64,000 bases of DNA from Escherichia coli (GTDB taxonomy: Bacteria > Pseudomonadota > Gammaproteobacteria > Enterobacterales > Enterobacteriaceae), in NCBI RefSeq assembly GCF_002854065.1, contig NZ_CP024147.1; one strand, written 5' to 3'. The translations under genes and the position numbers were made by a program. Every line of letters begins with the position of its first letter. Position 1 is the stretch's first letter. Below the pieces are notes generated by a model. That model made no database searches. It saw nothing but the letters and a program-made list of their open reading frames with translations, and was not told where the DNA came from. Of this stretch, positions 1 to 3,766 are shown one piece after another.

Positions 1-386
1 CCATCATTTAAGGTTACGCCATTGCGCAAGGCTTCAAGTGCGTCTTGTGTGGGAATACCTTCCACCTGCACATAATAGATTTTTCCGGTGCGTTTACCCG
101 GCTGGGTTAAACGCGCCTGCAACGCGCCGTTATTGGTCAGCACCAGTAACCCTTCGCTATCGCGGTCAAGACGACCTGCTGCATAAACGCCCTGAACCGG
201 GATGAATTCTTTTAATGCTTTGCGTCCGGCTTCATCGGTGAACTGCGGAAGAACATCGTAGGGTTTATTGAACAGGATCACACGCGTGGGCTGGTTTTCA
301 GGTTTACGCTTAGTGGAGTGTTGCGAGTTTAGTCGACTAACCTGTTTTTTTCTAAAAGAAGATTTAGAATCGCTAAAGTATTTCAT
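1..386 (-). CDS. rluE: 23S rRNA pseudouridine synthase RluE, N-terminal part (gene runs off window start)
   Basis: Minus-strand reading frame from ATG at 384-386 to the window edge; translation [49 protein letters not shown]...[17 protein letters not shown] matches the RluE/RsuA pseudouridine synthase family; divergent from icd as in E. coli. Confidence 0.8.
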
Positions 387-718
387 GGTAAATTCCAAAT
401 AGAGCTATACGCAGAGGGTAGCACAGTGTCGGATTGCATTGGACTTTGAAGGTACTCGTTAGAGGTTCAGGGTTCAGGCTCTTCAGCGCGGTTTCATCAA
501 TACCTGGGTTAGTGAGCAGCGGTTGTGTGGCTGCATGGTGATAAATATGGCCCAATGAACACATTTTACATTGATGAATTGAATAAATATTGGTATGAAA
601 AATAGTGTTTCTGTATTACTGATGGGTGACAGCACTTCACTGTTCAAGTTCAGGATGATGCTTTACCACTACCATCATCAGCAGTAATAAGAGGGGCATC
701 GCAGCCTTCTTTTTTATT

Positions 719-1069
719 CTACTGATACAGCCATTTTCCCGCTTCTGCTGATTCCGCAAACATCCGTACAGTTAACGGTAAACGTGTTGTTTCTACCTCT
801 TCCCGCTTGAGCTTGAACCATCGTTGAAGCAATGGTGCAGACTCCCACGGAAGGTACAAAGACCAGTCCAGATTATCCAGGTTAATCCCAAACCTCTCTT
901 TGTATTTCCGTATAGCGTCCTCTAAATCATCTCGTGGATAGTCGAACAAATCAGAGTCCAGTTCTAACGGAATTTCCTTCCCGTGGTCATCCTGATAACC
1001 TGGAATCTCATCACGGAACAGTGCTAAAACTTCGTCTGTGATTGTTGTTGCCATTAGAAGGAAGTCCAC
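719..1069 (-). CDS. hypothetical acidic protein, 116 aa (second gene of rluE-icd intergenic cassette)
   Basis: ORF-track ORF; an internal ATG at 1052-1054 overlaps the upstream gene's stop as TAATG, suggesting translational coupling; no family recognised with certainty. Confidence 0.5.
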   Translation of the reverse strand: MDFLLMATTITDEVLALFRDEIPGYQDDHGKEIPLELDSDLFDYPRDDLEDAIRKYKERFGINLDNLDWSLYLPWESAPLLQRWFKLKREEVETTRLPLTVRMFAESAEAGKWLYQ

Positions 1070-1503
1070 TTAATACGGTCTTGAGGTTTGGCAATCAGAT
1101 TGTATTTTTCCTGGGTACGAGTCGAAACCCTGTAAAGACTCATCGACAGTGAAACCCAACCAATCCACGGGACCCAACGAGCGATAATTGCAGCAAGCTT
1201 ATTAGATTTCTGCATCCTTACACCCACTGGTGTATGAACAGAAATACCAAAAGGCATGCGTGCATCTCTCATCAGTATACGCGCATACTTTGAGACAACA
1301 CTTGTTCCCAGGGTTGCCCCTTGCGGCTTCGCTCTTGTACCCAGCCAAGGTTGACCAGATAAGATTGCTGCACCTGATACCGAATCAATCCCCAATTCCT
1401 TACAGAATTCTTCAAGGAATATGACGTTGAGTAGTTCTATTTTGGACAGGTTCGGGTGTCCTCTATAGAAATATGTTCCATTGCGTTCTTCGGTAGTATC
1501 CAT
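1054..1503 (-). CDS. hypothetical protein, 149 aa (first large gene of rluE-icd intergenic cassette)
   Basis: ORF-track ORF with ATG start at 1501-1503 and GGAG about 10 nt upstream; stop overlaps start region of downstream ORF. Confidence 0.5.
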   Translation of the reverse strand: MDTTEERNGTYFYRGHPNLSKIELLNVIFLEEFCKELGIDSVSGAAILSGQPWLGTRAKPQGATLGTSVVSKYARILMRDARMPFGISVHTPVGVRMQKSNKLAAIIARWVPWIGWVSLSMSLYRVSTRTQEKYNLIAKPQDRIKWTSF

Positions 1504-1536
1504 TTTTCAACACTCCATTGTTATATAGTGTTTCTG

Positions 1537-1629
1537 TTACTTGAAGTTGATTTCTTCGGTTGCAGCAGATGCAGAACTAGAACCAGTAAAGGCAACGAGT
1601 GTCACAGCTATCAGTGCAAAGCGTTTCAT
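1537..1629 (-). CDS. candidate 30-aa small protein with hydrophobic signal-like N-terminus (MKRFALIAVTLVAFTGSSSASAATEEINFK)
   Basis: Hand-translated minus-strand ORF below the ORF-track size cut-off; GAGGT Shine-Dalgarno 5 nt upstream of ATG; ends 33 bp upstream of the 149-aa ORF. Confidence 0.3.
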   Translation of the reverse strand: MKRFALIAVTLVAFTGSSSASAATEEINFK

Positions 1630-2089
1630 GTGAACCTCAAAAAGGGTGGATGCCATAATTTACTCGTTGCTTGTCGCTTCAACCATGACTTTTGATAATT
1701 TTCCCAATAGTGCTCAAAGTGAGTTAGTCGCTGAATCGAGTAATGTCAAATTTTGACCAAATAGCACCCTGTTAGTTATCTCTGGTGGTTTTTTTATTGC
1801 TTAAAATCTGGTGTAACTAATTGATATTTAATACTTTATTTGAAGGTCGGGAAAATACTGTCTTTGGTCTAAAAGAAGTTTTTTGCATGGTATTTTCAGA
1901 GATTATGAATTGCCGCATTATAGCCTAATAACGCGCATCTTTCATGACGGCAAACAATAGGGTAGTATTGACAAGCCAATTACAAATCATTAACAAAAAA
2001 TTGCTCTAAAGCATCCGTATCGCAGGACGCAAACGCATATGCAACGTGGTGGCAGACGAGCAAACCAGTAGCGCTCGAAGGAGAGGTGA

Positions 2090-3340
2090 ATGGAAAGTAA
2101 AGTAGTTGTTCCGGCACAAGGCAAGAAGATCACCCTGCAAAACGGCAAACTCAACGTTCCTGAAAATCCGATTATCCCTTACATTGAAGGTGATGGAATC
2201 GGTGTAGATGTAACCCCAGCCATGCTGAAAGTGGTCGACGCTGCAGTCGAGAAAGCCTATAAAGGTGAGCGTAAAATCTCCTGGATGGAAATTTACACCG
2301 GTGAAAAATCCACACAGGTTTATGGTCAGGACGTCTGGTTGCCTGCTGAAACTCTTGATCTGATTCGTGAATATCGCGTTGCTATTAAAGGCCCGCTGAC
2401 CACTCCGGTTGGTGGCGGTATTCGTTCTCTCAACGTTGCCCTGCGCCAGGAACTGGATCTCTACATCTGCCTGCGTCCGGTACGTTACTATCAGGGCACT
2501 CCAAGCCCGGTTAAACACCCTGAACTGACCGATATGGTTATCTTCCGTGAAAACTCGGAAGACATTTATGCGGGTATCGAATGGAAAGCTGACTCTGCCG
2601 ACGCCGAGAAAGTGATTAAATTCCTGCGTGAAGAGATGGGCGTGAAGAAAATTCGCTTCCCGGAACATTGCGGTATCGGTATTAAGCCGTGTTCTGAAGA
2701 AGGCACCAAACGTCTGGTTCGTGCAGCGATCGAATACGCAATTGCTAACGATCGTGACTCTGTGACCCTGGTGCACAAAGGCAACATCATGAAGTTCACC
2801 GAAGGCGCGTTTAAAGACTGGGGCTACCAGCTGGCGCGTGAAGAATTTGGCGGTGAACTGATCGACGGCGGCCCGTGGCTGAAAGTTAAAAACCCGAATA
2901 CCGGCAAAGAGATCGTCATTAAAGACGTGATTGCTGATGCATTCCTGCAACAGATCCTGCTGCGTCCGGCTGAATATGATGTTATCGCCTGTATGAACCT
3001 GAACGGTGACTACATTTCTGACGCCCTGGCAGCGCAGGTTGGCGGTATCGGTATCGCCCCTGGTGCAAACATCGGTGACGAATGCGCCCTGTTTGAAGCC
3101 ACCCACGGTACTGCGCCGAAATATGCCGGTCAGGACAAAGTAAACCCAGGCTCTATTATACTCTCTGCTGAGATGATGTTACGCCACATGGGTTGGACCG
3201 AAGCCGCAGACCTGATTGTTAAAGGTATGGAAGGCGCAATCAATGCGAAGACCGTAACCTATGACTTCGAACGTTTGATGGAAGGCGCTAAACTGCTGAA
3301 ATGTTCAGAGTTTGGTGATGCGATCATCAAGAATATGTAA
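2090..3340 (+). CDS. icd: isocitrate dehydrogenase (NADP)
   Basis: 416-aa ORF with E. coli Icd sequence ([38 protein letters not shown]...); stop TAA at 3338-3340. Confidence 0.97.
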
Positions 3341-3442: not shown

Positions 3443-3766
3443 TTACTTGAGCCCATACGGGCATATTTTTATAATACAACTCTTATGCAAACATTTATTT
3501 GTTATTTCGCTTTCTCCTGGAGGACACTCTTGACTGCTTTTGAGTAAACTCCATAAATTCTTGTTGAATGGTGCAATGTTATAAATAGTAATAGGATATT
3601 CTTTATCCTTAAGGATAATACCAGGCTTAACAGGTGTAAATATACTTCCAGGAGGAAGAAATATAGTAGATTGATACCAGATGATCATTTTCATATCACC
3701 CCATATGGCTGAAAAAGATATGCCGCATGTAGGTTGAATTACCGTGTCAATTACTACCCACTTCAT
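3443..3766 (-). CDS. iraM: anti-adaptor protein IraM (RpoS stabiliser)
   Basis: 107-aa ORF in an AT-rich segment immediately after icd; size and position match IraM (ycgW) as recalled for K-12. Confidence 0.75.

Follow-up and report, generated by a model that had tools for sequence, protein, structure and literature searches.

Between rluE and icd in a 64,000-nt stretch of the Escherichia coli contig NZ_CP024147.1 (hereafter the window) lie two overlapping minus-strand genes, which encode a basic 149-aa protein of the STM2901 family (DUF8209) and an acidic 111-aa protein of the DUF1493 family. We consider it probable that the two form a predicted effector linked to Hcp of a type VI secretion system (T6SS) and an immunity protein with the fold of an acyl carrier protein (ACP), and that in Escherichia this pair has been orphaned from hcp. 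The locus would then be an hcp-less copy of a T6SS module that is widespread in Enterobacterales and consists of three genes, for Hcp, effector and immunity protein. We infer the toxicity of the larger protein, its neutralisation by binding, the dependence on Hcp and the function that the pair has in E. coli. The toxin domain occurs either free-standing beside hcp or at the tip of Rhs proteins and is followed by DUF1493, which argues for a delivered toxin with its cognate immunity protein. The positions of all features are collected in Table 1.

The two larger ORFs are conserved genes

A sequence-only reading of the window had described three minus-strand open reading frames (ORFs) between rluE and icd as a cassette of unknown function. 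All three were found where it had placed them, along with the GGAG and GAGGT motifs and the TAATG overlap that it had noted. A family could be assigned to the two larger ORFs but not to the 30-aa ORF, and in identical or near-identical genomes RefSeq annotates these two only, as "STM2901 family protein" and "DUF1493 family protein". The 149-aa protein matches the NCBIfam model NF045926 (STM2901 family) with 157 bits (E 2.8e-46; curated cutoff 110 bits), its residues 8–142 aligning to profile positions 1–140, and its homologs carry the Pfam domain PF26636 (DUF8209). The acidic protein matches Pfam PF07377 (DUF1493) with an E value of 1.3e-29, residues 4–110 covering positions 3–107 of the 108 in the model. 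A GTG start would give this protein 116 aa (719–1069, minus strand), and the internal ATG at 1054 gives 111 aa; the latter is the form annotated in RefSeq.

Compared with homologs from other genera, both genes show non-synonymous divergence (dN) of 0.09–0.27 at saturated synonymous sites (dS) and dN/dS ratios of 0.03–0.11 (0.05–0.11 for the 149-aa gene). As these values go together with the family matches, the comparison indicates that the two ORFs are real conserved genes under purifying selection across genera. Only five residues are invariant throughout the family of the 149-aa protein (L24, T67, S68, S71 and R109), and the E. coli protein has all five.

Relatives of the putative toxin gene are linked to hcp or fused to Rhs proteins

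When 1.84 billion representative proteins were searched with a profile of the toxin domain, 395 relatives were found. Many of them are longer and carry the domain as their last ~130 residues, after an Rhs core motif. The RHS repeat-associated core (TIGR03696) was found N-terminal to the STM2901 domain in nine of the ten long homologs scanned, and one long homolog carries Pfam RHS/YD-shell domains. These homologs thus have the architecture of Rhs C-terminal toxin domains. The protein of the window is the free-standing form of the domain, with its own start codon, a conserved MDTTEE N-terminus and no Rhs, PAAR, VgrG or Hcp fusion.

The genomic context was assessed in a census of species-representative genomes, which yielded 50 loci, all from Enterobacterales, that were scored by tblastn. 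An intact hcp gene lies directly upstream of the toxin gene and on the same strand at 26 of the 47 assessable loci, where it ends 10–15 nt before the toxin gene. At three further loci this position holds an hcp remnant, at eight an hcp gene is found elsewhere within 3.5 kb, and at ten there is none within that distance. Downstream, DUF1493 follows the toxin gene directly at 44 of 49 assessable enteric loci. The complete arrangement, with a 160-aa hcp (PF05638) upstream and DUF1493 directly downstream, is seen in Citrobacter, Winslowiella and Enterobacteriaceae bacterium 89, and in Cronobacter and at one Winslowiella locus the upstream hcp is reduced to a 3′ remnant. Linkage to hcp as expected of a T6SS Hcp-cargo module is therefore found for the family as a whole and not in the window itself. 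The co-directional immunity gene downstream is found in both, as the TAATG overlap in the window and at the 44 enteric loci, and it extends to distant loci (L016/L017, L070 and L071); at such distant loci DUF1493 comes directly after a divergent free-standing form of the domain, an Rhs-core fragment and, in the third case, a lipoprotein-like fusion.

Several related loci are more complex or mobile. In Mangrovibacter (L049, L050), at L029 and in Raoultella (L036), multiple hcp genes or pieces of them share 7 kb with two or three copies of DUF1493, and these clusters look like effector-immunity arrays with orphan immunity genes. The additional DUF1493 copies in Mangrovibacter and Raoultella thus group as is usual for orphan immunity genes, in favour of the proposed explanation. 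Toxin homologs are also present on 153 plasmids in PLSDB, mostly megaplasmids of Serratia, Pantoea and Rahnella, often with DUF1493 alongside; 54 of these plasmids are predicted to be conjugative. Erwinia phage EtG (MF276773.2 / NC_047833.1) encodes at 14453–14890 a 33%-identical homolog, annotated as "putative membrane protein", that may be a phage-borne toxin moron.

Predicted properties of the two proteins

The lumen of Hcp accommodates effectors of about 20–25 kDa or less. With 16.8 kDa the 149-aa protein is within this limit, and its isoelectric point (pI) of 10.0 is paired with a pI of 4.5 for the soluble 13.2-kDa DUF1493 protein; these properties support the reading as an Hcp cargo with a binding antidote. 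The DUF1493 protein has neither a signal peptide nor a transmembrane (TM) segment, and its maximum Kyte-Doolittle value over a 19-residue window is 0.34. The most hydrophobic segment of the 149-aa protein, the Trp-rich residues 103–121, reaches 1.37 over the same window length, and the TM threshold used was 1.6. In the wider family this segment is flanked by the invariant R109 and a conserved Asp, ~12 residues apart. A membrane pore-former was considered and down-weighted, given the hydrophobic stretch of only ~12 residues, the value below threshold and the soluble immunity protein. We favour a cytoplasmic site of action for the toxin over that of a classical pore-former, as its DUF1493 partner is soluble and acidic and the toxin itself has no convincing TM segment.

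For the DUF1493 protein, AlphaFold2 gave a high-confidence model with an ACP-like four-helix fold, which matches carrier proteins and not helix-turn-helix, ribbon-helix-helix or AbrB folds. In ACPs and peptidyl carrier proteins, phosphopantetheine is attached to a serine where helix II begins. In DUF1493 no such serine is conserved: homologs have Y, T, F or D at the equivalent position, S34, and the predicted helix II begins at a conserved P40-x-D42-D43. Sequence identity to the carrier proteins is 6–23%, and DUF1493 has about 30 extra residues. The protein is thus ACP-like in its predicted fold and lacks the conserved helix-II serine that defines an ACP. We regard it as a putative cytoplasmic, acidic immunity protein that would bind and neutralise the toxin.

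For the toxin, Pfam searches with the single sequence or a diverse alignment gave no significant match and no recognisable catalytic motif, and a sequence search of solved structures found no significant match for either protein. With a broad toxin profile, the sole match in PDB was a 34-residue motif of the phage Chi tape measure protein: profile positions 110–143 align to residues 764–797 of 8vjh chain Q (E 7e-5), with the conserved toxin motif R-x-x-P-x-x-G-W-x-x-L-A-Y-D...Y-N from the Trp-rich hydrophobic segment in common. The two may share a motif associated with membranes or channels, or may have converged.

The islet interrupts the 5′ end of rluE

In the window, which begins inside rluE, this gene lies on the minus strand with its start codon at 386, and icd occupies 2090–3340 on the plus strand. 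On alignment to K-12-type DNA, identity ends at 1868 and returns at about 310, beyond a diverged patch. The foreign DNA thus spans about 310–1867, ~1.5 kb of low GC content (42%, compared with about 50% in neighbouring genes), and lies within the ancestral 5′ coding end of rluE. The sequence-only reading had proposed an inserted module of about 0.9 kb in the rluE-icd intergenic region, with flanks that together have roughly the size of the K-12 spacer. The inserted module is upheld by its absence from K-12-type genomes and its presence in a minority of E. coli genomes (see below). Its extent and place had to be revised: both flanks belong to the insert, the distance from the annotated rluE start to icd in a K-12/BL21-type genome is only 171 bp, and the boundaries revealed by the alignment do not fall at this spacer. 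In loci of other genera, DNA homology is restricted to the two larger ORFs and does not extend into the islet flanks.

The insertion is bounded by a direct repeat of the 11-bp sequence TCTAAAAGAAG, which occurs twice in the window, at the two sites listed in Table 1, and once in K-12-type genomes, at the empty site. The ~41–50 nt next to the left copy contain 13 mismatches relative to the K-12 type, which suggests, as judged from the alignment, that the diverged 41 bp were imported by homeologous recombination. We also considered a deletion between the 11-bp repeats as the origin of the K-12 arrangement, and rejected it because of the 13 differences in the adjacent 41 bp and the K-12-type start in outgroups. 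As the RluE proteins of Salmonella and Kluyvera have the K-12-type N-terminus, the islet-bearing form of rluE is the derived one. Its product has 212 aa, compared with 217 aa annotated in K-12-type strains, and the first 17 ancestral codons, MRQFIISENTMQKTSFR, are left stranded on the icd side. A search with the new N-terminus of RluE returned fragments only and identified no donor.

Distribution in Escherichia

Of 5,426 complete E. coli genomes, 374 (about 7%) contain the islet; the remaining genomes match the window at 1868–2090 only. In 371 of the 374 carriers the islet has been kept intact. Strain CUWW06 (NZ_CP182139.1) has an IS2 insertion within the islet region, and IAI39 (NC_011750.1) retains only the half of the query with the toxin gene. 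Outside E. coli, the islet recurs at this site in Escherichia sp. E1V33, where it is 96–99% identical to the window. The 222-bp spacer is 100% identical between the two, whereas the body of rluE is only 92% identical. An islet so much more similar than the rluE body points to exchange of the islet between Escherichia lineages or species by recombination.

A combined query matched 1,725 records, and the 1,356 E. coli genomes with an hcp gene weakly similar to that of the module barely overlap the 374 islet carriers. This is probably a phylogroup effect; the carriers include O102:H6, MS 69-1 and IAI39-like strains. One GenBank entry, ON470584.1 ("Escherichia phage vB_EcoM-689R6"), holds the host genes icd, rluE, nudJ, mnmA and hflD along with the islet; it represents an e14-like prophage at icd whose boundaries were drawn too wide. 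The PHROGs families that match the two proteins are all of unknown function, and over-extended prophage records of this kind and Erwinia phage EtG probably account for them at least in part. None of the three ORFs matched a PADLOC defence model at E values up to 1, and in the family searches neither of the two proteins matched an enzyme family.

A model for the pair in Escherichia and its alternatives

In the full module, the neighbouring Hcp would take up a small, basic antibacterial toxin in its lumen for firing into competitors, and DUF1493, translationally coupled to the toxin, would bind and neutralise it in producer and kin cells. We propose that an Escherichia lineage gained the effector-immunity pair alone, carried by ~1.5 kb of low-GC DNA; this DNA inserted into the 5′ end of rluE and would have supplied the gene with a new start codon. 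In present carriers the pair probably serves mainly for immunity to DUF8209 toxins from other enterobacteria. It may further stabilise itself, the loss of the antidote being costly as long as the toxin gene is intact (addiction-like). Export from E. coli carriers would need a non-cognate Hcp.

A number of findings weigh against this model. A tblastn search for hcp or an hcp remnant, beside the pair and across the window, gave a best E value of 0.24. The trio of hcp, toxin and immunity gene occurs in no complete E. coli genome, and E. coli hcp genes are 68–77% identical to the module hcp over at most 65% of the length; export in E. coli is doubtful because the trio is absent and the hcp genes are so distant. 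The census was collected through peptide patterns of the enteric subgroup and is biased to Enterobacterales, and at one Rhs-type locus the small downstream ORF is not detectably DUF1493. Within Escherichia, substitutions are too few to show selection. The structure model of the toxin is poor (pLDDT, the predicted local distance difference test score, of 61), and a fold search with it returned coiled-coil noise only. A literature search found no functional study of DUF1493 or STM2901/DUF8209; papers on the Proteus pef operon and surveys of Hcp cargo turned out to have no relation to these families.

The same genes could instead work entirely inside E. coli, as a self-contained toxin-antitoxin (TA, addiction) module without secretion, in which a labile DUF1493 protein restrains a stable intracellular toxin and the benefit is stabilisation of the islet or a stress response. 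Compact overlapping genes for a basic toxin and an acidic partner would suit such a module, as would the intact state of the islet in nearly all carriers and the lack of hcp in the window and beside the pair in any complete E. coli genome. We nevertheless find it unlikely. On Rhs proteins the domain forms a tip typical of polymorphic toxins, in most genera it is linked to hcp, the order of toxin and then antidote is typical of effector-immunity pairs, and the ACP-like DUF1493 has no DNA-binding domain for autoregulation. Neither protein falls into a TA family of Pfam, NCBIfam or PADLOC, and the pair does not qualify as a type II TA system. Of the two likenesses drawn by the sequence-only reading, that to toxin-immunity pairs is thus borne out by hcp linkage, Rhs fusions and conserved pairing, and that to classical toxin-antitoxin pairs has become the less likely one. 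An inert relic, captured by recombination at rluE, barely expressed and now drifting, seems improbable to us as well. It would account for the missing hcp and for the lack of a recognisable dedicated promoter, for the IS2 insertion in one strain and the half islet of IAI39, and for the upstream flank (1504–1867) being the islet segment that differs most between E. coli alleles (94.8% identity). The dN/dS ratio within Escherichia, 0.15–0.45 on the basis of very few substitutions, might also reflect drift. On the other hand, almost all of the 374 carriers have intact copies of both ORFs, as does the second Escherichia species, all family-invariant residues are retained, and the two E. coli alleles differ by five synonymous and one non-synonymous change across both genes. 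Read-through transcription is moreover plausible, the islet having rluE on one side and the ancestral rluE promoter region on the other.

Very unlikely, and the least probable of the alternatives that we considered, is that there is no toxin system at all and that DUF1493 is a carrier or adaptor for a DUF8209 enzyme or structural partner, in an Hcp-associated or lipid-related role. The ACP-like predicted fold and the lack of a recognisable catalytic motif in the DUF8209 protein would fit this role, but the variable S34 and the P-x-D-D start of helix II do not, fusion after an Rhs core marks a delivered toxin, and neither a phosphopantetheinyl transferase nor biosynthetic genes accompany the pair consistently. 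The fold could also be put to use within the effector-immunity model, with DUF1493 as a mimic of ACP: the toxin would act on holo-ACP or an ACP-dependent step, or require ACP as an activating cofactor, and the immunity protein would block it by occupying its ACP-binding surface. This is a long shot, tenable because the DUF1493 model is ACP-like, acidic and without the prosthetic-group serine, and because the toxin is basic, has invariant T67, S68, S71 and R109 and has no known fold. If true, ACP mimicry would mean that a toxin delivered by T6SS or Rhs proteins acts in a new way and that its immunity follows a new logic.

Comparison with known effector-immunity systems

The closest characterised analogue of the proposed effector-immunity pair is Ssp6-Sip6 of Serratia marcescens, a family of Hcp-dependent T6SS effectors and immunity proteins (PMC6889166). 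As in Ssp6-like pairs, the effector is small and found mainly in Enterobacterales, and the immunity gene lies directly downstream and overlaps it (PMC6889166). Other common traits are a variable, horizontally acquired location, an "orphan" hcp or no T6SS gene nearby, and "silent" extra copies. The two systems differ in their proteins. Sip6 has 67 aa and two TM helices, whereas the DUF1493 protein has 111 aa and is soluble, acidic and ACP-like; Ssp6 forms ion-selective pores, whereas the 149-aa toxin has no segment that reaches the TM threshold. By its immunity protein the pair is outside the Ssp6/Sip6 family, and it is set apart from Ssp6 by description, not by sequence.

In Rhs polymorphic toxins, homologs of the window protein form the C-terminal tip and a small immunity gene comes next, which was DUF1493 in two of the three cases examined. 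The Hcp cargo effectors Tse2 and Tse4 of Pseudomonas aeruginosa are comparable in their Hcp-lumen-compatible size and adjacent immunity gene, and in the hcp linkage that is seen for homologs of the window protein (PMC8262886). No sequence or fold relationship to them was shown, however, the hcp gene is missing in the window and the binding of Hcp is putative. The namesake of the family, STM2901-STM2902 beside the pathogenicity island SPI-1 of Salmonella Typhimurium, is likewise an hcp-less pair of STM2901 and then DUF1493, located at another chromosomal site and 60–70% identical to the window pair at the protein level. Papers mention it solely as a landmark for cloning or in lists of transcriptome data, and it is likewise uncharacterised.

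The proposed explanation would give a testable role to two DUF families present in thousands of enterobacterial genomes, among them a gene beside Salmonella SPI-1. For a toxin with neither a recognisable fold nor a catalytic motif, identification of the target could uncover an antibacterial mechanism of a new kind. The islet would be a clean natural case of an effector-immunity pair that lost its delivery gene and became fixed in certain lineages, and would bear on the persistence of orphan immunity genes and "silent" effectors. Its insertion altered the N-terminus, and probably the transcription, of rluE, which encodes an rRNA pseudouridine synthase; this is relevant to the annotation of rluE and to comparisons of rluE/icd regulation between strains.

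Further features of the locus

Table 1. Features of the islet and of its borders with rluE and the icd-side DNA (positions in the window).
Feature	Position	Strand	Remarks
Replaced rluE 5′ end	310..386	-	New start codon 386; 32.5% GC
Left copy of the 11-bp direct repeat	351..361		Inside the present rluE 5′ coding sequence
Left non-coding islet flank	387..718		42% GC; no homology outside Escherichia
111-aa DUF1493 ORF	719..1054	-	ATG overlaps the toxin-gene stop as TAATG; putative cognate immunity gene
149-aa ORF	1054..1503	-	GGAG 9 nt 5′ of ATG; putative Hcp-cargo type VI secretion toxin gene
Right non-coding islet flank	1504..1867		37% GC; contains the 30-aa ORF; no hcp remnant
30-aa ORF, signal-peptide-like sequence	1537..1629	-	GAGGT upstream; probably no functional gene
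Right copy of the 11-bp direct repeat	1868..1878		K-12-type identity resumes exactly here
Stranded ancestral rluE 5′ remnant	1868..1918	-	First 17 codons, on the icd side
Sigma-70 promoter-like site	1917..1945	-	ATGAAA-17-TATAAT, 10/12; in the ancestral rluE upstream region; consensus scan only

The 30-aa ORF, which the sequence-only reading had counted as the third member of the cassette, is probably a chance ORF or a relic and no functional gene. An ORF of its size is expected by chance, as the first 3.6 kb of the window contain 47 ORFs of at least 25 aa. It matches no family in NCBIfam, PADLOC or PHROGs, and neither the ORF nor the surrounding DNA has a counterpart at the homologous loci in other genera. 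Relative to the window, a non-conservative change from Thr to Lys alters the hydrophobic core in the majority E. coli allele, which also lacks 6 nt, and in Escherichia sp. E1V33 a 1-nt deletion causes a frameshift with loss of the stop codon.

A consensus scan for promoters gave no more sites than in shuffled sequence. One of its sites, the sigma-70-like match listed in Table 1, could by its position and consensus match read through the islet into rluE, and no terminator was predicted on the minus strand across the islet. An Rfam scan of window positions 300–2200 found no RNA family. On the far side of the islet, the 3′ end of icd is without an integrated e14-type prophage, unlike in K-12, and is directly followed by iraM (107-aa ORF, 3443–3766, minus strand).

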